Source of the DNA: a virus
Strand: one strand, 5' to 3'
IMG/VR virus record: IMGVR_UViG_3300036766_000359
Coordinates: 64,001 to 128,000 of that record
Length of the DNA: 64,000 nucleotides
Position numbers and translations under genes: made by a program. The notes beneath the pieces were generated by a model. The model was not told the origin of the DNA. It saw only the letters and a list, made by a program, of their open reading frames with translations, and searched no databases. Within the stretch, counting starts at the first letter, position 1; every line of letters starts with the position of its first letter. Positions 3,545 through 37,135 of this stretch are shown piece by piece.

Positions 3545-4450
3545 CTATGGAGACACTATAATGCTAACGACAACGGTCTGGTTACCGTTAGAAGCATTTG
3601 GGGAAGAAATGAGGATGGTTTCAGTATAAGTCCCTGGTGTGGTGGGTACCCCAGGACTTAAAACAGAAAAAGTGACCGGTGAAAACGCCGCAGATGCGAG
3701 AGGACCAACGGACGCTGGAACGAATTGAAGCCACGGGCTCCGATTTTGAACCTTCGCCAAAGTGGCATTTAGGATAGATCCGGCCGGACCAGAGTTCGAA
3801 ACAATGACTTGTTGAGAACCTCCGGAAGTGGCAAGGTTGAGGGAATATGTAAGAACGACTTGTGTTACGTTCGTTGCAATGGCAGGTCTCGGAAGAACTA
3901 TAACGCCAAAATTGAGCGTTATAACCGTAGCCGGTTGACGGTTGTCTTGGAGAACGACGCTTCCGGAATACGGAGATCCTGTTGATAACAAAATCGATGG
4001 GACGACTTTGATAGCAAACTGACCTTGTTCATTTTTGTTAAGACCGGAAACGATCGTCGGACCGACTTGAAGCCATGGAGCGCTCGGAGTAGCCGTAGCG
4101 GTAAGGAAAGAACCGAAAGCTCCGGCATTCTGGAAAACGACTGTGGAAATGAAGGAGGATGGGTCTCCTTCAGTGACCGTAACGTTAACTGGGTTGGGGG
4201 AGGATATTAGAGCCAACAGAGGTGCAAGCTGTTGTTGGACCTGCTGAAGGGTGTCGGCCATGGCCAAAACAACTTCTCCGGGTAGTGGAAGCTCCACGTC
4301 AGAGAAACGCCCGAACGGAGACATTATATCAATAACTCTGTAAACTTGATTGGCACCCTGAATGTTATTCGCATGGACGGTCCAGTACCATTTACCCCCG
4401 ACAGAGTCAAGGTCAAATGAAAATCCGCCCGCTGAAACGCTTGTAGCCAT
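3545..4450 (-). CDS. Protein with two BACON/Ig-like beta-sandwich domains, probable virion decoration or adhesion protein
   Basis: Two units containing WLQxxP followed by beta-strand patterns (APWLQVGPT, SPWLQFVPA); S/T/V/P-rich. Confidence 0.6.
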   Translation of the reverse strand: MATSVSAGGFSFDLDSVGGKWYWTVHANNIQGANQVYRVIDIMSPFGRFSDVELPLPGEVVLAMADTLQQVQQQLAPLLALISSPNPVNVTVTEGDPSSFISTVVFQNAGAFGSFLTATATPSAPWLQVGPTIVSGLNKNEQGQFAIKVVPSILLSTGSPYSGSVVLQDNRQPATVITLNFGVIVLPRPAIATNVTQVVLTYSLNLATSGGSQQVIVSNSGPAGSILNATLAKVQNRSPWLQFVPASVGPLASAAFSPVTFSVLSPGVPTTPGTYTETILISSPNASNGNQTVVVSIIVSP

Positions 4451-4473
4451 AATCTATGATGTCGAAAAGAAGC

Positions 4474-6324
4474 TCAACTGTCTACAGGTCTACGAAAACA
4501 GAATTTCTTTTTCTCTTTACCAAAAATCTTCACATATCCATGTTCGGAAGCATATTCCGACTCAGTCGAACCATGACGTGAAGCGTGACCATATAAAGTT
4601 TTCTTATGTATGACAAAGCCATCTTGATTTATATAATGATAATCTGAAGGGACAATGTGCATCTCTTCCCAATTGGAAGCGAGATATATAGTTCCAGTAT
4701 GCCCAAAAGTCGAATCAGAAAAACTGATTAAAGTTAAAACCCCTGGGTAATTCGCGAAAACTTTCTTGGAACATCTTGATATCATCCAAGACGCAAAGTT
4801 TTTCTTTTGATAACTTGGATGAATACAAAATCGATCAAGTTCTAATACCTGACTCTGACTGAAACCCATCGAAGTAGCAGATTCCTTCCTGACAGGAGGG
4901 CAAAATTTACAAACAGCAATTAAGTTATTCCCAAAATACGCACCATAAACAGATTTAGCGGCACGACCATATCCAGAATAGTGGAAACTTTGCAAAAACT
5001 CTTCCGGAGGAGAATAATATGAATTAGGTAAAATGTTTCTAATGTCAATTTTTTCAATAACTATATCGTCGAATGAAAAATCATTCTGGTTATCTTCTTC
5101 CTCATTAAAGAGGGCACGAACCAATTTTTGCCGAATGAGACCAGGGTTCAAGAAATCACGTTCCCAAAGGTACATGATTTTTAAATCAGAAAAGTATTTA
5201 TCAATGTACGTAAATTTCGAGGCGTCAGCACTCTTCCGAAGAGAGTGCCAGTATTCACCGTTACATTCGATCAGAAGGTTATGCGACGGAATGAATAAGT
5301 CAAATTCGAAATATCCAAGTACATGGTGACGAATATATTTAATATTAAGAGCATCAAGAAGAGTTTGAGTCGTTCGTTCGAGAATGCTGTCTTTACCATT
5401 GGAAAGAATTTCAGAACGAGCGACGGCTTGTCTCTTCCTATACTCGTCGTCCTGCCAACGAGCTTTACTGGCAACTGATATGGCTTCCCTATATGCAGGA
5501 TTAAGGAAAGCTTTATGTAATCCATCAAGAAGACACTTCCTGGATTTTGGGTCTGCCCACTGACGAGTTGCGTTATCCGACTTTAAGCGAAGAAGATCAG
5601 GGTCTTCGTTTGCTTTCTTTATTTTTTCTCGATATTCAGGGTCTTCCAAAAATGATTTGGCTCTATCGGATGCTTCTTTAATGGCAACGTCATTACCTTT
5701 CCAAAACAAAGCAATGGAATCAATTACACTGCTACGGTATTCATCATTATTCCATCTTTCAATAGCAAGAGTCCGTTGTAGTTCAACGTGTTTATCTGAT
5801 GCTTTAACATCAAGTTGACGTTTCACATACTCAGGGTCTAACCACATAGACTTAGCGCGTTCAGAACGAGCGTCACGTTCGTTCTGATCAACTTTTTGGT
5901 TATCACGAAATTCTTCTGTTTTCCACAGTTCAGTAGTTCTTATGGAGGCTTCATTCCTGATCTGAGGGTTACTCCACGTCTTTGTCGAAGATTCCGTAAT
6001 CTTCTTACGAAATAAATCATTTGCCCATAAATTTTTGGAAATGTCCGACTGTTGAGAGCAACGATCATCGGACCACGATTTTCTGACACCTGCGGATATG
6101 GAGGCAAGATAACCAGGGTCCAGACTTTTCTCTTTCACACCACAAGAAAGACATCTATACTTACCAACACGCTTAATAGTGCGAAGTAAAGATGCGATTT
6201 TTATCTGGACTTCAGCACCACACTCACATAGCGCCGTAACGACTGACTGATTCGTTAACCGACCGTATTCACCTTTAACAAACGACTGGGAGATTTTGAA
6301 TCGTTCAAGGTCAGGATGGGTCAT
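4474..6324 (-). CDS. Homing-endonuclease-like fusion: Zn ribbon + NUMOD3-like helical repeats + DUF559/Vsr-type nuclease + C-terminal Hef/Mom-like GNAT domain
   Basis: CECG...CLSCG; repeated K..W.D.EYR helices; FEFDLFIPSHNLLIECNGEYWHS; ELDRFCIHP...LISFSDSTFGHTGTIYLASNW. Confidence 0.7.
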   Translation of the reverse strand: MTHPDLERFKISQSFVKGEYGRLTNQSVVTALCECGAEVQIKIASLLRTIKRVGKYRCLSCGVKEKSLDPGYLASISAGVRKSWSDDRCSQQSDISKNLWANDLFRKKITESSTKTWSNPQIRNEASIRTTELWKTEEFRDNQKVDQNERDARSERAKSMWLDPEYVKRQLDVKASDKHVELQRTLAIERWNNDEYRSSVIDSIALFWKGNDVAIKEASDRAKSFLEDPEYREKIKKANEDPDLLRLKSDNATRQWADPKSRKCLLDGLHKAFLNPAYREAISVASKARWQDDEYRKRQAVARSEILSNGKDSILERTTQTLLDALNIKYIRHHVLGYFEFDLFIPSHNLLIECNGEYWHSLRKSADASKFTYIDKYFSDLKIMYLWERDFLNPGLIRQKLVRALFNEEEDNQNDFSFDDIVIEKIDIRNILPNSYYSPPEEFLQSFHYSGYGRAAKSVYGAYFGNNLIAVCKFCPPVRKESATSMGFSQSQVLELDRFCIHPSYQKKNFASWMISRCSKKVFANYPGVLTLISFSDSTFGHTGTIYLASNWEEMHIVPSDYHYINQDGFVIHKKTLYGHASRHGSTESEYASEHGYVKIFGKEKKKFCFRRPVDS

Positions 6325-12409: not shown

Positions 12410-13054
12410 TTAATTATCTGAAGGGGCACAAAAGGCCATGCCGAGTTTAACGTTATGAAGGATTATGCTTGTTTTTCCACCTAGGATTTGAGTATACATA
12501 CCAACAAAGTCTGGTCTTGACAAGAAAACAGGAAAGGCTACACCGCATCGATGGACTCGACAAATCTTCTTATAAACTACAACGGCGTCCATAGTAGAGC
12601 CAGAATGAGACGAGACATTCCCACGAGTGATATTTGTTTTTCCAGCCCACTCATCAAATTGTGATTGACTCCATGATGATGGAACAAGAACGCAATGAGG
12701 CTGGGCCTCAGTTCCACTTTGTTTTTGAAGCCAATCGAATGCAGATTTTGCAGTTCGATGTATATTGTCCCATTTCTCCTCTTTTGATAAAGAGTATGCG
12801 GCAGACATGAGATCAGGGATCAGTTCGTCAAGACGATCCTGGTCATGACTAAAAACACCAGATCTTATCAATCCATTCGATATTTTTCTTGATACGGTAA
12901 ACTTTGGAGTTGACAGGCTAACGATGGCGGGAAGAAAAGAAGGCTTTGACGGTATTTCAATCCAAAAAACCGTTCCTTCAACTCCGCGTTTTGATCTATG
13001 AAGATCATGATCAAGTATTTGAAGTAAAATCAAGTTAGTCGTCCCATATATCAT
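12410..13054 (-). CDS. Hypothetical protein
   Basis: 214-aa ORF within the replication operon. Confidence 0.65.
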   Translation of the reverse strand: MIYGTTNLILLQILDHDLHRSKRGVEGTVFWIEIPSKPSFLPAIVSLSTPKFTVSRKISNGLIRSGVFSHDQDRLDELIPDLMSAAYSLSKEEKWDNIHRTAKSAFDWLQKQSGTEAQPHCVLVPSSWSQSQFDEWAGKTNITRGNVSSHSGSTMDAVVVYKKICRVHRCGVAFPVFLSRPDFVGMYTQILGGKTSIILHNVKLGMAFCAPSDN

Positions 13055-13598
13055 CAGGAAGATAAACAGTGGCGTCAGGGACTGGGTTTTTCACACCAAT
13101 AAATAATGACTTAAACCAAATATTAAATCGATCAAAAAGTGATAACGACATTTCGTGGACGCGCTCTCCAAGAACCCATTGAAGAGTTGCCATGTCCCTA
13201 TAATTATTGAACACATACTCGTCATCAGCGAGATGTTCGATAAATTCTTTCTTCGATTCTTGAATGCTAGTTCTAGGCTTAAACATGGGGCAAGAAAGAG
13301 AAACTTCATCAGAGTCGCATATAGAACCTTTCCAATTCTTAGAGTCTTCAGATCCGTACATGCAGAGATGGACAGAACCATTATTTTCATTTTGAAAAAC
13401 AACGACGGTAGACTGATCTCTAGGAGCGACTGGCATCTCAATAGATTTAGTTCTAGTGTACGGAAGAACTACTGTTTGATGAACTTCATTGAAAACACAA
13501 TTCAAATGTTTTCTGTCTTGTGAACTACGAATATGCTTTATAGCATATCTAGCCATAAGCTTCTTCAATCTCTTCTCAATATCTTCCTTAGTTTTCAA
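13035..13598 (-). CDS. Hypothetical protein
   Basis: 187-aa ORF with ATGA coupling to the upstream gene. Confidence 0.65.
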   Translation of the reverse strand: MKTKEDIEKRLKKLMARYAIKHIRSSQDRKHLNCVFNEVHQTVVLPYTRTKSIEMPVAPRDQSTVVVFQNENNGSVHLCMYGSEDSKNWKGSICDSDEVSLSCPMFKPRTSIQESKKEFIEHLADDEYVFNNYRDMATLQWVLGERVHEMSLSLFDRFNIWFKSLFIGVKNPVPDATVYLPDDIWDD

Positions 13599-24516: not shown

Positions 24517-27372
24517 CTACGAACATCCTGTCGTCGTACCACAAGATGAACATAGATAACACGAACCATTGCGTTGAGTCATGTTACCACATCGAGTGCA
24601 AGGCGGACCACCAAGATTCTTACGTGCTGGTTTAATCGGGATAGCGGAAGAAGGTGAGGGAATAATTGAACGAAAGACATCAGAATCAGGATCTTTGGAA
24701 ATACTTTCATTAATGTCTTCATGAGAATCATCAACGGTTCGTGTTAAGCCAGAGTACTCACCACCGTAATAATGGACATCGAGAACCTTGAACATGTAAT
24801 CATACAAACTCTTGGCAAACCGAACGTTCTTGTTTGTCGTTATGCCGGAAGGTTCAAATCGAGTATCGATGAAACTAATTATCAATTTTGGAAGCGGAAT
24901 TCCATACTGAATGGCAATAGAACAAAGTTGAGTAAAACCATCAATAAGACCAGAAACGGTGCTTCCTGGTTTACCGAGTTTAAGAAAGATCTCACCAGGA
25001 CGACCATCGGGATACTCACTAACTATGAGATATCCTTTATAACCATCAATTTCAAATTTATGACGCCAACTTTTAACATCTGACGGCATTTTCTCACGAT
25101 AGACGACAGGTACTTCTCGGATTACTTCTTGGATCCTAACTTCAGCCTCTTTCAAAGCTGCTTGTATTACAGGATCTTTAGCTTCCTTCGTAACGAGAGG
25201 CTGAGACGCCTTACACTTGTCACGATATAAGGCAATGCACTTTAATCCGAGACGCCATGATTCTTCATAAATTTTGGCGATCTCGTCTGAAGTGACGCCT
25301 TCAGGAAGATTAACTGTCTTACTCATTGCACATGTGATGAGAGGCTGTATTGCCGCCATCATCTTAATATGTGCCATTGGCGATAAATAACGTCCGGAGT
25401 CACCAGAAGGCATCGCGGTGTCAAAAACTGGAAGGTGTTCATCTTTCAGTCCAGGAGCACCATCAATCGTATCATGAGATTCAACGTACTTACATATCTC
25501 ATCAACTTCATCTTTTGAATAACCGAGATTAACGAGTGCCTCGCGAACTCCAAAGTTCACGAGCTTCATCACGCCGCCACCGACGAGAGACTTATATGAA
25601 ACAAGAGAGAAAGCCGGTTCAATGCCGGTCGTGTTCATACCCATCAAGAACGAGATTGTCCCAAGTGGCGCTTGAAGGGTAGCTTGTGAAACATTATACC
25701 CATACTTCTCACCAAGAGATATAGATTCACGCCAAATATCAGCAGACAAAGATGCTATATCATCACTGATTGGATCTTTTGAAAGATGCCAACGTTCAGT
25801 GATCTTCGTGTCTGCTTCCTGATGCATTCGCATGACACGAAGCATATCATCACGGTTCTTTTCATATTCTGAAAAAGTTCCGATTCGAGCTGCCATTTTT
25901 GACGAAGTTAAATATACGACTCCAGTCATGAGTGATGCCATTCGAGCTGCAATGGCACGACCTTCATCTGAATCGTAACCATAACCAAGATTCATTATTA
26001 GGGCACCAAGGTCACCATAGTTAGACCCGATCGGACGAAGTTTGTGTGAGTTAGAAGTTATCTCATCGGTCGGATAAGAAGCCTTCGCTATGATGGCCAT
26101 TTGTGATGTGCTAAAGATCCTGGTAGCCTGAATGAATCTATCAGCAACAAACTTACGACCGTCAAAAAACTTCGTCAAATTAATCGCGCAAAGATTACAA
26201 GCGGTGTTATCAATATGGAGGAATTCAGCGCACGGATTTGAGGCACGAATGCGACCACTCTTTGGTGTAGTGTGCCATTTGTTTATATTATCAGAAAACT
26301 GGATACCTGGGTCACCACATTTCCAAGCAGCGTCGGCAATTTCATGCCAAAGCATGCGAGCATTGTAGTTGTGAACTATCTTCCCGCCCTTACGTTCGCG
26401 GGTTTGCCAGGTCCCATCATCAAGCATGGATTGCATGAATGCATCAGGAACAGAAACTGAGTGATTAGCATTCTGGTACGGAACGATCTTATACGCACCA
26501 TTCGGGTTGTCGTATTCAGATGAATAACCAATCGATACAAGATCGTGAGCTAACTTTTCCGCCCAAGATTTGCATGAAATAAAACCAGGGCGACCATCAC
26601 GAGTTTCAAGAATGTCAGGATGGTCCATATCCATCACGACCATCTTGGCTGCATTTCTTGTAGCTCCACCAGATTTCATGGAACCGGCATAAGCGTTGTT
26701 ACCTTGCATCCAAGACATCGGGCCGGAAGTGTACGAACCTGCAGAAATTTTTTCATAAGAAGACCTGAGGTTTGATAAATTTGCCCCAGACCCTGATCCA
26801 CCACGAAAAATTGCAAGCTCAGACGCTTGAAAATGCATTATATCGTCAAGAGAGTCTTCAATGCCGGATATGAAACATGCGGAAGCAGTTTGCTCTCGCC
26901 CATCAATTCCGAGATTAAACCAAACAGGAGAATTGAAAGCTCCGTACTGATGCAATAACGCGTAAATGAGCTCTTCTTCAAAAACCTGTTTGTCTTGAAC
27001 AGTATTGAAAAATTTTTGATCAGAAGCCCAGTCACGAATCGTAGAACAAACGCGAGTGAATATCTGTTTTACAGAATTCTCACGTACACCACCAACGACA
27101 CGAAAATACTTATCTGCGACAACATTAACATTATTTTGGGTCCACCAAGCAGGGACCTCGATATCTTTTTGTTCAAAAATTATTTCGCCTTTACCGCTTC
27201 GAATGCAGGCATCAACAATTTTCCATTCAATTTGATCGAATGGATGAATACCTTCAGAGGTAAAAACACGAGGCCAATGTCCGGCTTCACGTGAAACAAT
27301 ATCTTTGCTTGACAACAAAGTCTTGTTAATACTAACAACCTGCGCGTCAGAAGTTACACTAGCGTTCGACAT
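24517..27372 (-). CDS. nrdJ: Class II (adenosylcobalamin-dependent) ribonucleotide reductase
   Basis: FNSPVWFN, SACFI, SNPCAE, APLGTISF..TTGIEP, SKTVNLP; C-terminal TSCPD region and Zn ribbon CTRCG...CYLCSSCG. Confidence 0.95.
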   Translation of the reverse strand: MSNASVTSDAQVVSINKTLLSSKDIVSREAGHWPRVFTSEGIHPFDQIEWKIVDACIRSGKGEIIFEQKDIEVPAWWTQNNVNVVADKYFRVVGGVRENSVKQIFTRVCSTIRDWASDQKFFNTVQDKQVFEEELIYALLHQYGAFNSPVWFNLGIDGREQTASACFISGIEDSLDDIMHFQASELAIFRGGSGSGANLSNLRSSYEKISAGSYTSGPMSWMQGNNAYAGSMKSGGATRNAAKMVVMDMDHPDILETRDGRPGFISCKSWAEKLAHDLVSIGYSSEYDNPNGAYKIVPYQNANHSVSVPDAFMQSMLDDGTWQTRERKGGKIVHNYNARMLWHEIADAAWKCGDPGIQFSDNINKWHTTPKSGRIRASNPCAEFLHIDNTACNLCAINLTKFFDGRKFVADRFIQATRIFSTSQMAIIAKASYPTDEITSNSHKLRPIGSNYGDLGALIMNLGYGYDSDEGRAIAARMASLMTGVVYLTSSKMAARIGTFSEYEKNRDDMLRVMRMHQEADTKITERWHLSKDPISDDIASLSADIWRESISLGEKYGYNVSQATLQAPLGTISFLMGMNTTGIEPAFSLVSYKSLVGGGVMKLVNFGVREALVNLGYSKDEVDEICKYVESHDTIDGAPGLKDEHLPVFDTAMPSGDSGRYLSPMAHIKMMAAIQPLITCAMSKTVNLPEGVTSDEIAKIYEESWRLGLKCIALYRDKCKASQPLVTKEAKDPVIQAALKEAEVRIQEVIREVPVVYREKMPSDVKSWRHKFEIDGYKGYLIVSEYPDGRPGEIFLKLGKPGSTVSGLIDGFTQLCSIAIQYGIPLPKLIISFIDTRFEPSGITTNKNVRFAKSLYDYMFKVLDVHYYGGEYSGLTRTVDDSHEDINESISKDPDSDVFRSIIPSPSSAIPIKPARKNLGGPPCTRCGNMTQRNGSCYLCSSCGTTTGCS

Positions 27373-34629: not shown

Positions 34630-34672
34630 CGTGTTCAGGTGTAGGGTTCTACAACAAATTTGGAGGTGACAG

Positions 34673-37135
34673 GTGCAGGAAGGGAAGTTGAATATACTAT
34701 TGGACGCATTCTGGGGTTCATCCGGAAAAGGAAAAACATCGTCTTTCCTTGCTGATAAATTTGGTGTTACACGAGTCTCTAGCTCAAATTTCCCAAATGC
34801 CGGTCACTGTTGTGGAGAAGATACATACATAACGACAAATCGTGGTCTCGAAAGATTAGGCGATGTTGTTCGTGCATCTAAATCTAACACATCCATAGTG
34901 AATATGGATGGTTCCTTTGAGTCCGTTTCACATTTTGTGGCAGATGGTATTCGGAAGGTTAACACAATACTATTAAAAAATGGTATTTCCATTGATTGCA
35001 CTGACGTACACCGGTTTTTAGTTTGGAATTCGGAAAAATCTGATGTTGAATGGGTTCGATCTATAGATCTTGATCCTGAAACTCACAGTTTCCTATTTCC
35101 AAAATCTGTAGCCTTCAATGGCGGTAGCCTCTTACCAACTGAGTGGACTTCTGCCGATAAACCAAACAAAACTAAAATTGGATTGCCTTTTTCAGAAGAG
35201 ATGTTTGCTTCTTATCTAGGTCTTCTCGTCGGTGACGGGTACTACGCTCGGAAAACGAATGTGAGTATTGCGTTCCATACAAGCCAAATTGATGTACTCA
35301 ATAAAATTCGGGCCATGTATTCGGAAATGGGCATAACAAATCAAAGTGTTGTTCAAGTAGGTGATAAAGAATGCTTTGTGCTCGACACATCCCAGTGTTC
35401 TGGTTTGATGGAATTGTTTGAACTCGTTAACCTCAAACTTGCGATAAAATCAGAAAAGCAAACACCGAAAAAAATTTTAACTTCAAACGTCAAAATCATG
35501 GGTGCATATCTTAGTGGTCTTTTTGACTCGGACGGATCCGTTAAGTCAGATAGAGTAACATTAAGCAACTGTTCCGAAAGTGTTGTTCGTGATGCACAAG
35601 CCATGCTTCATGTACTCGGCATATCAGGGTTTATTACATTTTATGACGATGATCGTGATGATACACGAATGCGTCAGTGGTGTTTGTCTATCAGTGGGTC
35701 AAGAAATCTTAGTATTTTTCAAGATAAAGTGGGGATGTTGTCCGAGATAAAACAACAAAAACTTCGTGGACTGGTTCAATCAATAAATCACGTTGGACAA
35801 ATCATAAATATCAACTCATCCGTTCGAGTTGAATTACGTAAACGCGGGTTTAAATCCGATTCAGGAAATAAAGGCGTTCGAGAGTCAACAATAGAAAAGC
35901 TTGCAGAATCCGGGTATTCAGGACCGGTTGTTGAATCACTTCGTAAATACCATATTATTCAGATTAAATCGATCGAATTTGAATCTAAAGAAATTGAAGT
36001 ATTTGACCTAACGGTTCCTGGCACACACAGCTATCTCGCTAATGGCTGCGTAGCTCATAATACGGCTACATTTAAGGACGGCACCAAGTTCATAGCGAAA
36101 GCAATTCCAACAGCCGCCATTCTCAAGAAAGTTAAAGGCGTTGGGATGCAGTGTTGGATAACTCCAGGTTCAGGTTTTGCTTGGGCACAGCTTATTAAAG
36201 AATGGGATGAATCTGGGAAACCAGAAATCAATATTCACTCGCGTGCATCAATTGTAACGACAGAGCATAAAGAAAGAGAATCTCAGGGAAACGAGTCAAC
36301 AAAACATATTGCGAGCACGATGCAAGGCTCAGCGGCTGCTATGGTAGACAAAGTCTTACGTAAGGCTGACTGTCAACTCGCAGAAACCACTGAATTGCAT
36401 AAGGTCATTGAGTCATTACGAAATAATGACAAATTGATGAACGAATTTTTCACTAATGATATAACGCAAGAGTTTCTTGAAAAAGTGCATGTAGTTGATG
36501 CTTGGGATTTTAGAAAACTAACTCATCAAGCGTTACATAATGGACATCCGTGGCTCCATGAGGGTTCACAAGGATACGCTTTGTCTATTGATCATGGGTC
36601 CCACTTTCCTTTTTGCACAAGTCGAAACGCTTCGATACAATCTGCGATGGACCATCTAGCCGTACCGCCAAAATTGGTCGGTGACGTTTATTTGAATCTT
36701 CGTACTATGCCGATTCGTGTAGGAAACGTCGTTGAGGACGGAGTTCAAAAGGGATACTCAGGCGATTTTTATCCAGACTGTCATGAAATGACATGGGAAC
36801 AAGTGGCACGAGAAGCAGGAATGCCGGAAGAAGAAGCAAAAAAGCTATCGGAAAGAGAACGAACAACGGTTACTAAAAGAGTTCGTAGAGTGTGTACTTT
36901 TTCGTTTAGTGGATTGAAAGATGCTGTTGCTACAAATGGAGCAACAAAACTCATTGTGAATTTCATTCAGTATATAAACTGGCAAGATGCGGGGCTCATG
37001 GGAGAACAAGACGCTTTCTTGAAGCTATCCAAAAAAAGCCGATCATTTATAGACCAGGTAGAAGAAGTTGCTGGAGTTCCTGTGGTACTTATTGGAACTG
37101 GTGCTTTACATGAGGAAATGATATCGAGAATGTGA
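34673..37135 (+). CDS. purZ: PurZ-type 2-amino-deoxyadenylosuccinate synthetase precursor with intein (402 aa after splicing)
   Basis: GTG start with SD GGAGG; DAFWGSSGKGK, PNAGH|T, IASTMQG, HEGSQGYALSIDHG..PFCTSR, RTMPIRVGN, YSGDFYPD, TTVTKRVRRVCTFS, NGATKLIVNFIQY. Confidence 0.85.
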   Translation: MQEGKLNILLDAFWGSSGKGKTSSFLADKFGVTRVSSSNFPNAGHCCGEDTYITTNRGLERLGDVVRASKSNTSIVNMDGSFESVSHFVADGIRKVNTILLKNGISIDCTDVHRFLVWNSEKSDVEWVRSIDLDPETHSFLFPKSVAFNGGSLLPTEWTSADKPNKTKIGLPFSEEMFASYLGLLVGDGYYARKTNVSIAFHTSQIDVLNKIRAMYSEMGITNQSVVQVGDKECFVLDTSQCSGLMELFELVNLKLAIKSEKQTPKKILTSNVKIMGAYLSGLFDSDGSVKSDRVTLSNCSESVVRDAQAMLHVLGISGFITFYDDDRDDTRMRQWCLSISGSRNLSIFQDKVGMLSEIKQQKLRGLVQSINHVGQIININSSVRVELRKRGFKSDSGNKGVRESTIEKLAESGYSGPVVESLRKYHIIQIKSIEFESKEIEVFDLTVPGTHSYLANGCVAHNTATFKDGTKFIAKAIPTAAILKKVKGVGMQCWITPGSGFAWAQLIKEWDESGKPEINIHSRASIVTTEHKERESQGNESTKHIASTMQGSAAAMVDKVLRKADCQLAETTELHKVIESLRNNDKLMNEFFTNDITQEFLEKVHVVDAWDFRKLTHQALHNGHPWLHEGSQGYALSIDHGSHFPFCTSRNASIQSAMDHLAVPPKLVGDVYLNLRTMPIRVGNVVEDGVQKGYSGDFYPDCHEMTWEQVAREAGMPEEEAKKLSERERTTVTKRVRRVCTFSFSGLKDAVATNGATKLIVNFIQYINWQDAGLMGEQDAFLKLSKKSRSFIDQVEEVAGVPVVLIGTGALHEEMISRM
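34808..36061 (+). mobile_element. Full-length intein with LAGLIDADG homing endonuclease (418 aa)
   Basis: Starts at Cys46 (CCGEDTYI), block B CTDVHRF, endonuclease motifs YLGLLVGDGY and YLSGLFDSDGSV, block F VFDLTV, ends GCVAHN followed by Thr+1. Confidence 0.95.

Follow-up and report, generated by a model that had tools for sequence, protein, structure and literature searches.

A LAGLIDADG intein, recently spread or lost among almost identical huge-phage strains, interrupts a predicted PurZ-like enzyme

The stretch of DNA analysed in this study, referred to as the window, comprises 64,000 nucleotides (nt) of viral sequence, corresponding to positions 64,001 to 128,000 of IMG/VR record IMGVR_UViG_3300036766_000359 (192,972 bp, 45% complete according to CheckV), and it contains a gene for a putative PurZ-type enzyme that is interrupted by an intein. 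PurZ, N6-succino-2-amino-2'-deoxyadenylate synthase, is the type of enzyme responsible for making 2-aminoadenine (Z), a DNA base, and inteins favour the active sites of DNA and nucleotide enzymes. The analysis revealed that the region between positions 34808 and 36061 is a complete class-1 intein with every splicing and endonuclease motif, its splicing and cutting activities being predicted, and that, within one huge-phage population, this intein recently spread or was lost between strains that are almost identical. The LAGLIDADG intein is well formed and recently mobile, and its host protein family is new for inteins; as an element it is of an ordinary kind, in an undescribed place.

The interrupted gene is a single open reading frame (ORF), the parts of which are listed in Table 1. 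Its outer portions (exteins) match the Pfam family Adenylsucc_synt (PF00709) on both sides of the intein, while their top matches are the NCBIfam PurZ model and PHROG 1211, ‘2-aminooxy adenylosuccinate synthetase’. The N-extein of 45 amino acids (aa) has the PurZ of phage phiVC8 as its top PDB match (6fko, E 3.4e-5), and this alignment stops exactly at His45. A preliminary description of this DNA had placed the insertion between that residue, equated with His41 of E. coli PurA, and the threonine that follows, and this placement is confirmed by residue alignment, in which His45 is paired with E. coli PurA His41 and phiVC8 PurZ His43, and by the junctions, which read NAGH/CCGEDT and GCVAHN/TATF, excision of the intein restoring NAGH-TATF. 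The motif NAGH[T/S/C] occupies the junction position in 114 of 120 intein-free homologs. The residue directly after NAGH in intein-free alleles is Thr, Ser or, occasionally, Cys (e.g. L019:3001-4020); all three are usable as a +1 nucleophile, meaning that the NAGH site is pre-adapted to intein insertion. Locus L019 was considered as a further intein carrier on account of the Cys after NAGH and was rejected, as it represents an empty site with Cys at +1. In the PurZ of phage S-2L, N49 and A50 line the pocket for the base of deoxyguanosine monophosphate (dGMP), and G51, H52 and T53 hold the triphosphate (PMC8342488). The intein splits the equivalent residues, so that the unspliced precursor would be without an intact pocket.

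Concerning the intein itself, Pfam recognised both the splicing domain (Intein_splicing, 1e-13, 51.8 bits with a cut-off of 35.8) and the embedded endonuclease (LAGLIDADG_3, 1.2e-15, 57.9 bits; Hom_end, 1e-8, 35.6 bits), and the NCBIfam model intein_Cterm matched at 1.2e-9 (38 bits versus a cut-off of 15.6). An AlphaFold2 model, built on an alignment of 18 inteins inserted at the same site, reached a predicted local distance difference test (pLDDT) value of 92.9 and a predicted TM-score (pTM) of 0.92. Foldseek searches with this model returned TliVMA as the top PDB structure (7qss, E 2.8e-21), followed by PI-PfuI, PI-TkoII and PI-SceI, all of which are full-length, endonuclease-bearing inteins, while the endonuclease domain was matched to I-DmoI and I-Tsp061I (target-normalised TM-score, TMt, 0.64-0.74), consistent with an I-DmoI-like alpha/beta fold. 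Motifs, Pfam and the structural model thereby agree with the earlier assignment of a canonical intein (Cys1, His-Asn, Thr+1) with two LAGLIDADG motifs, the coordinates of which proved to be exact. The continuous reading frame and the presence of the Hint blocks led to the rejection of another candidate, a group I intron carrying an endonuclease ORF. Base composition, with a guanine plus cytosine content of 39.0% in the intein and 42.4% in the exteins, gave no clear sign of foreign origin.

Comparison of closely related strains provides the evidence for recent mobility. The 90%-identity cluster to which the protein belongs consists of seven alleles of 820 aa (that of the window included) and two alleles of 402 aa, P0319 and P0320, which match the spliced product predicted for the window at 99.3% and 99.0% identity; apart from the start codon, they differ from it only in Thr to Ser at +1, Thr to Val at +3 and one polymorphic Leu/Ser position. 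At the DNA level, contig L030 (14.8 kb) shares 97.8% identity with the window upstream of the insertion and 98.7% downstream, the corresponding values for contig L031 being 99.6% and 98.4%, and the intein is absent from both, which lack exactly 34808-36061, as the alignment breaks fall at 34808 and 36061. Outside the junction patch described below, one amino-acid-changing codon was found among the codons that differ between the window and L030; since nearly all of these differences are silent, the interrupted gene is still under purifying selection, an indirect argument for splicing. In two intein-bearing contigs from other samples (L032 and L033, with identifiers in the same numbering series), not one of the 1254 intein positions differs from the window, while the 1074-nt C-exteins contain 3 and 8 differences and the flanks diverge by approximately 1% (Poisson P 8e-6 and 9e-5).

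The junction patch (Table 1) is made up of the first 9 nt of the C-extein, in which five positions distinguish the intein-bearing from the intein-free allele, with no difference in the 135 nt upstream and none further through C-extein position 266. The binomial probability of such a cluster arising anywhere in the gene is approximately 4e-4. The outgroup reads ACAGCCGCA (Thr-Ala-Ala) at this place, from which it follows that both patch alleles are derived. The patch is a candidate for either the 3' half of the homing site, with a protective change in the empty allele, or a co-conversion tract.

Across the extein tree, the 18 carriers of an intein at this site are scattered, such that 16 gains or losses are needed, and there are several sister pairs made up of one intein-bearing and one intein-free allele; of 153 pairs compared, 59 show greater similarity between the inteins than between their exteins. 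The strain data fit, and point to, an active homing cycle among co-infecting huge phages, in which cutting by the endonuclease is predicted. The homing among related phages that had been proposed in the preliminary description thus finds backing in strain-level presence and absence and in the zero-diversity intein.

A length-aware search of public metagenome protein clusters revealed that the intein is one of many in this enzyme family, as approximately 36 clusters of intein-bearing homologs (740-1212 aa) were retrieved. The site described above (site a, NAGH/C...HN/T or S) is occupied in at least 18 clusters, that of the window included, while a further site (site b, GSH[YF]PF/C...N/CTSRN) is occupied in approximately 21 clusters by two unrelated intein types, one of which ends in NVEN without a penultimate His and carries LAGLIDADG_2, the other ending in HN and carrying LAGLIDADG_3; four proteins have inteins at both sites. 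Conserved throughout the 18 site-a inteins are Cys1, both fixed residues of TxxH (Thr and His), the DG pair of the second motif and a terminal HN with Thr or Ser after it. Apart from the other site-a inteins (41-61% identity), the intein in the window has no close relatives, the next-best ones residing in PhoH, PolA, MutS, ribonucleotide reductase (RNR) and MCM at an identity of at most 27-29%. The intein of the window is a member of an old lineage that is specific to this site in the enzyme family. In three of the 18 site-a inteins (P0018, P0028 and P0032), Asn replaces the first catalytic Asp (VGNG) while the splicing residues are intact; judging from these sequences, their endonucleases are probably decaying, which fits the decay phase of a homing cycle.

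The view that no intein is known in the PurA/PurZ family stood in part, as a full-text literature search found no paper describing an intein in PurZ or PurA, and no described PurZ with an intein was encountered in literature and phage-record searches. The site is not unique, however, given the at least 18 metagenomic clusters with an insertion at the same place, and one of these proteins is already annotated automatically by the Joint Genome Institute (JGI) as ‘adenylosuccinate synthase/intein/homing endonuclease’. When the gene was compared with 50,697 phage records, blastn produced no match, and tblastn matched exteins and inteins only separately, no record having both, which implies that no cultured phage in that set possesses this combination.

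The host protein was assigned to the PurZ type on the basis of its residues and its position in the tree, in accordance with the preliminary description. Its P-loop, GSSGKGK, has Ser at the position of Asp13 in E. coli PurA, a substitution also seen in 114 of 120 close homologs and, among the top representatives from a search of 1.84 billion proteins, in all 114 with a P-loop, whereas E. coli PurA and the short PurA of Thermococcales keep Asp (GDEGKG). In published sequences, 99% of PurA have Asp and all 147 phage PurZ and PurZ0 (100%) have Ser (PMC12884076). In addition to this Ser (S14 in phiVC8 numbering), a published list of PurZ-diagnostic residues (F12, P233, G256, T262, F295 and Y298; bioRxiv 10.1101/2025.10.22.683976) yielded matches at P233, T262, F295 and Y298, i.e. 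five of seven positions, F295 and Y298 being ATP-stacking residues, and the C-extein contains a YPD..E.TWE insertion common to PurZ. Trees were computed using FastTree for the full set and using IQ-TREE (LG+G4) for 59 rows, rooted on bacterial PurA, the archaeal PurA sequences having been obtained by a Thermococcales PurA motif scan. In the IQ-TREE phylogeny, archaeal PurA is sister to a Ser-type clade (Shimodaira-Hasegawa-like approximate likelihood ratio test, SH-aLRT, 99) composed of PurZ0, PurZ and the family of the window, and the latter two form a clade without PurZ0 (SH-aLRT 97). The model of the intein-free allele (pLDDT 96.9) has phiVC8 PurZ as its top structural match (6fm1, E 3.4e-30). 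Based on these sequence features, the host protein appears to be of the PurZ type and to represent a divergent third branch from huge phages, labelled PurZ-like here in view of its sub-cut-off model score (see below), and PurZ-like function of the enzyme is quite probable.

Further information can be deduced from the genomes of relatives. Homologs of 62-74% identity occur on contigs of up to 445 kb, one of which, a 393-kb relative with terminal repeats that was judged 100% complete, has the same gene order and an intein-free allele. This relative encodes a DatZ-family HD protein (phrog_7076, 1.5e-20; 28% identical to phiVC8 DatZ), an adjoining gene for a MazG-like segment fused to a Multiubiquitin domain, a dCTP-deaminase-like protein and a PolA of 963 aa. 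The four genes (at 3584-4198, 4195-4908, 12486-13145 and 13368-16259 of L021, G001:C1:90001-108000) lie within 13 kb of each other and approximately 190 kb from the PurZ-type gene, and it is on this arrangement that we suggest that the 393-kb phage may have a split Z-cluster. The gene content of this relative supports, short of proof, the presence of a Z pathway in the clade. A literature search returned no paper linking PurZ with jumbo phages. The Jug gut phages (PMC12880540) were considered as the identity of the clade and were rejected for want of a link, as that publication reports inteins in nrdD and polymerase genes and nothing on PurZ, and as the phage of the window has a class II RNR.

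Taking the above together, we consider it probable that the account as a whole is correct, namely that a PurZ-type precursor carries an intein in its nucleotide-binding loop and that this intein homes among related phages. In the course of events that we infer, where splicing, endonuclease cutting, synthesis of the deoxy-Z (dZ) precursor by the enzyme and the presence of Z in the target DNA are all inferred elements, the precursor would be unable to form the pocket for dGMP and nucleoside triphosphate. Formation of a thioester at Cys1, attack by Thr+1 and cyclisation of Asn418 would then excise the intein, yielding a 402-aa enzyme that reads NAGH-TATF and a free intein. In a mixed infection, the endonuclease would cut the intein-free allele of a related phage at the conserved site, and repair from the intein-bearing copy would spread the intein together with short flanking stretches of extein.

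A number of points weigh against this account. With regard to homing, the five-in-nine patch can be read in two ways, as a target change that shields the empty allele or as a co-converted donor tract, and the zero-diversity intein could also have resulted from ordinary recombination spreading one allele. The intein might otherwise be a long-resident and mostly vertically inherited passenger with a dead endonuclease, its presence and absence being due to precise loss or to ordinary homologous recombination between co-infecting strains, and this reading gains from the positive correlation between intein and extein identities (Spearman 0.46), from the lost catalytic Asp in three of 18 relatives, which makes endonuclease decay real in this lineage, and from the fact that the nearest non-strain relative of the intein is just 61% identical. 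It is nonetheless quite unlikely, as neither catalytic Asp has been lost from the intein of the window, the clade as a whole conserves the endonuclease domain, intein diversity is zero against approximately 1% in the flanks, and both the scatter of carriers over the extein tree and the 59 pairs with inteins more alike than exteins are at odds with vertical descent. The intein might instead splice conditionally, in response to redox, temperature or metal, and thereby serve as a post-translational switch that sets when, in the course of infection, synthesis shifts from A to Z; its position in the active-site loop, owing to which the precursor must be inactive, the unusual Cys1-Cys2 pair and the Cys residues adjoining blocks B and G would be compatible with such a role. 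We regard this as very unlikely, since Cys2 is peculiar to this intein, its relatives having Gln at position 2, and near-identical strains live without the intein, which argues for a selfish, dispensable element and against an adopted regulator. That the intein fails to splice and has left a purZ pseudogene in this strain is extremely improbable, for the splicing residues are all intact, the frame is open over 820 aa, the extein differences between strains are almost all synonymous and at least six contigs, from several samples, carry this same allele.

The remaining points concern the enzyme, which might be a divergent adenylosuccinate-synthetase-like phage protein outside the Z pathway, with another substrate (inosine monophosphate, IMP, or its deoxy form, dIMP) or product, in a phage with ordinary A-containing DNA; the intein story would be unchanged by this. 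The NCBIfam PurZ model NF038379 has a cut-off of 300 bits, and the precursor (164 bits), the intein-free allele (183) and the homolog P0043 (193) all score far below it, as compared with 397 for phiVC8 PurZ and 367 for the PurZ0 of phage Wayne, while the archaeal PurA model follows closely on this family with 147-168 bits. Two of the seven diagnostic residues differ (F12W and G256A), the top PDB sequence match of the C-extein is PurA of P. horikoshii, no datZ, mazZ/MazG, HD or PolA gene was found in the 45%-complete record, and the literature search mentioned above failed to link PurZ with jumbo phages. Forcing the family outside PurZ plus PurZ0 costs 49.6 log-likelihood units, yet the approximately unbiased (AU) test gives p 0.069, so that this placement is not quite rejected. 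An enzyme outside the Z pathway nevertheless seems rather unlikely in light of the Ser at the Asp13 position, which is shared with all phage PurZ and PurZ0 and contrasts with the Asp of short archaeal PurA, the five matching diagnostic residues with both ATP-stacking positions among them, the shared YPD..E.TWE insertion, the split from archaeal PurA at SH-aLRT 99, the DatZ-family and MazG-like genes of the complete 393-kb relative and the structural match to phiVC8 PurZ. The model scores also bear on the suggestion in the preliminary description that the insert may hide this gene from length-filtered PurZ surveys, which is correct insofar as the precursor scores 164 bits against the required 300; the intein-free allele is likewise under the cut-off, however, and divergence therefore hides the gene as much as the insert does.

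Table 1. Position of the intein, its motifs, the PurZ-type gene and neighbouring genes in the 64,000-nt window.
Feature	Position	Strand	Description
purZ-type ORF	34673-37135	+	single uninterrupted 820-aa frame, GTG start
Shine-Dalgarno-like GGAGGTG	34662-34668	+	read from sequence; 5 nt ahead of GTG start
N-extein, residues 1-45	34673-34807	+	P-loop GSSGKGK; C-terminal end ...NFPNAGH
Class-1 intein, 418 aa, residues 46-463	34808-36061	+	Pfam, NCBIfam and model; double-motif LAGLIDADG endonuclease embedded
Cys1, N-terminal splicing nucleophile (block A)	34808-34810	+	invariant in 18/18 site-a inteins
Block B TDVH (TxxH), intein residues 65-68	35000-35011	+	Thr65 and His68 invariant across same-site alignment
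LAGLIDADG motif 1, YLGLLVGDGYY	35213-35245	+	catalytic Asp143 (by motif); in relatives Asp 15/18, Asn 3/18
LAGLIDADG motif 2, YLSGLFDSDGS	35507-35539	+	catalytic Asp242 (by motif); DG pair invariant in 18/18
Blocks F and G, VFDLTVPGTHSYLANGCVAHN, terminal His417-Asn418	35999-36061	+	H417 and N418 invariant; intein_Cterm match
C-extein, residues 464-820, 357 aa plus stop	36062-37135	+	begins TATFKDG; Pfam, NCBIfam, PHROG and residue alignment
First 9 nt of C-extein, ACGGCTACA (Thr+1-Ala-Thr)	36062-36070	+	5/9 nt differ from intein-free TCAGCTGTG (Ser-Ala-Val)
Second intein site GSHFPF/CTSRN, unoccupied here	36613/36614	+	equals Y203/C204 of S-2L PurZ dGMP pocket (PMC8342488)
Flanking ORF, 243 aa	33898-34629	+	no Pfam or PHROG match
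Flanking ORF, 83 aa	37145-37396	+	no Pfam or PHROG match
Flanking ORF, 184-188 aa	37393-37959	-	no Pfam or PHROG match
ThyX, 444 aa	38037-39371	+	long extension past Thy1 domain
Class II RNR	24517-27372	-	C-terminal TSCPD domain

The PurZ-type gene is located among genes for a class II RNR, clamp-loader subunits, a sigma-like protein and ThyX. Both the RNR and ThyX are kept in syntenic relatives, and the three ORFs that flank the PurZ-type gene keep their position in the strain-level contigs. The same genome contains, upstream of the window, at least three more LAGLIDADG inteins in two ORFs, these being a 916-aa ORF with one intein (G000:C1:43009-45759, minus strand) and a 1501-aa ORF with two (G000:C1:50604-55109, minus strand), the exteins of which are without a Pfam match.

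A new host protein for an intein is an extension of a known pattern and as such is no surprise. The findings of this study do, however, identify PurZ-type enzymes as a recurrent intein target, with two pocket sites and three intein lineages for which no published description was found. The near-identical strains with and without the intein represent a natural before-and-after pair, complete with the exact empty site and with a patch that is a candidate for resistance or for co-conversion, by means of which homing becomes directly testable; to our knowledge, such pairs are rare for uncultured phages. Surveys of PurZ that rely on length or on curated cut-offs miss an entire huge-phage branch. 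Should the DNA of the clade contain Z, the endonuclease would have to act on Z-substituted targets, a need that exists only with the putative Z genome. In published tests, about half of the restriction enzymes failed on Z-substituted DNA (PMC12944874). It is possible, if on balance doubtful, that this clade of huge phages (approximately 390-430 kb) swaps A for Z and that the LAGLIDADG endonucleases of at least three PurZ intein lineages cleave fully Z-substituted DNA in mixed infection; were this the case, they would be the first nucleases naturally adapted to Z-DNA targets, and intein excision would be an obligatory maturation step for Z synthesis.

With respect to known systems, the intein shares its layout, a Hint domain combined with a two-motif LAGLIDADG endonuclease, with TliVMA (7QSS), PI-PfuI (1DQ3) and PI-SceI (1VDE, 1LWS) (query-normalised TM-score, TMq, 0.55-0.72; E 1e-13 to 3e-21), as well as the canonical nucleophiles and the HN end, and differs from them in sequence (10-17% identity), in having a new host protein and insertion site and in residing in a phage rather than in an archaeon or yeast. 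The host enzyme resembles the PurZ of Vibrio phage phiVC8 and cyanophage S-2L (6FM1, 6FKO, 7ODX) in its fold, in the Ser at the Asp13 position, in the NAGHT loop and in its membership of the same Ser-type clade, and shares with them P233, T262, F295, Y298 and the YPD..E.TWE insertion. It differs in that identity is approximately 26-30%, in that extra insertions bring it to 402 aa as against 343-365, and in being encoded by a huge phage of approximately 390-430 kb in which the PurZ-type gene is not clustered with datZ/mazZ. The inteins of PhoH, PolA, MutS, class II RNR, MCM and phage DnaB helicases are the nearest kin outside the PurZ family and are likewise inserted in conserved active-site motifs, whereas the site-a inteins of PurZ form a separate lineage at 41-61% identity.

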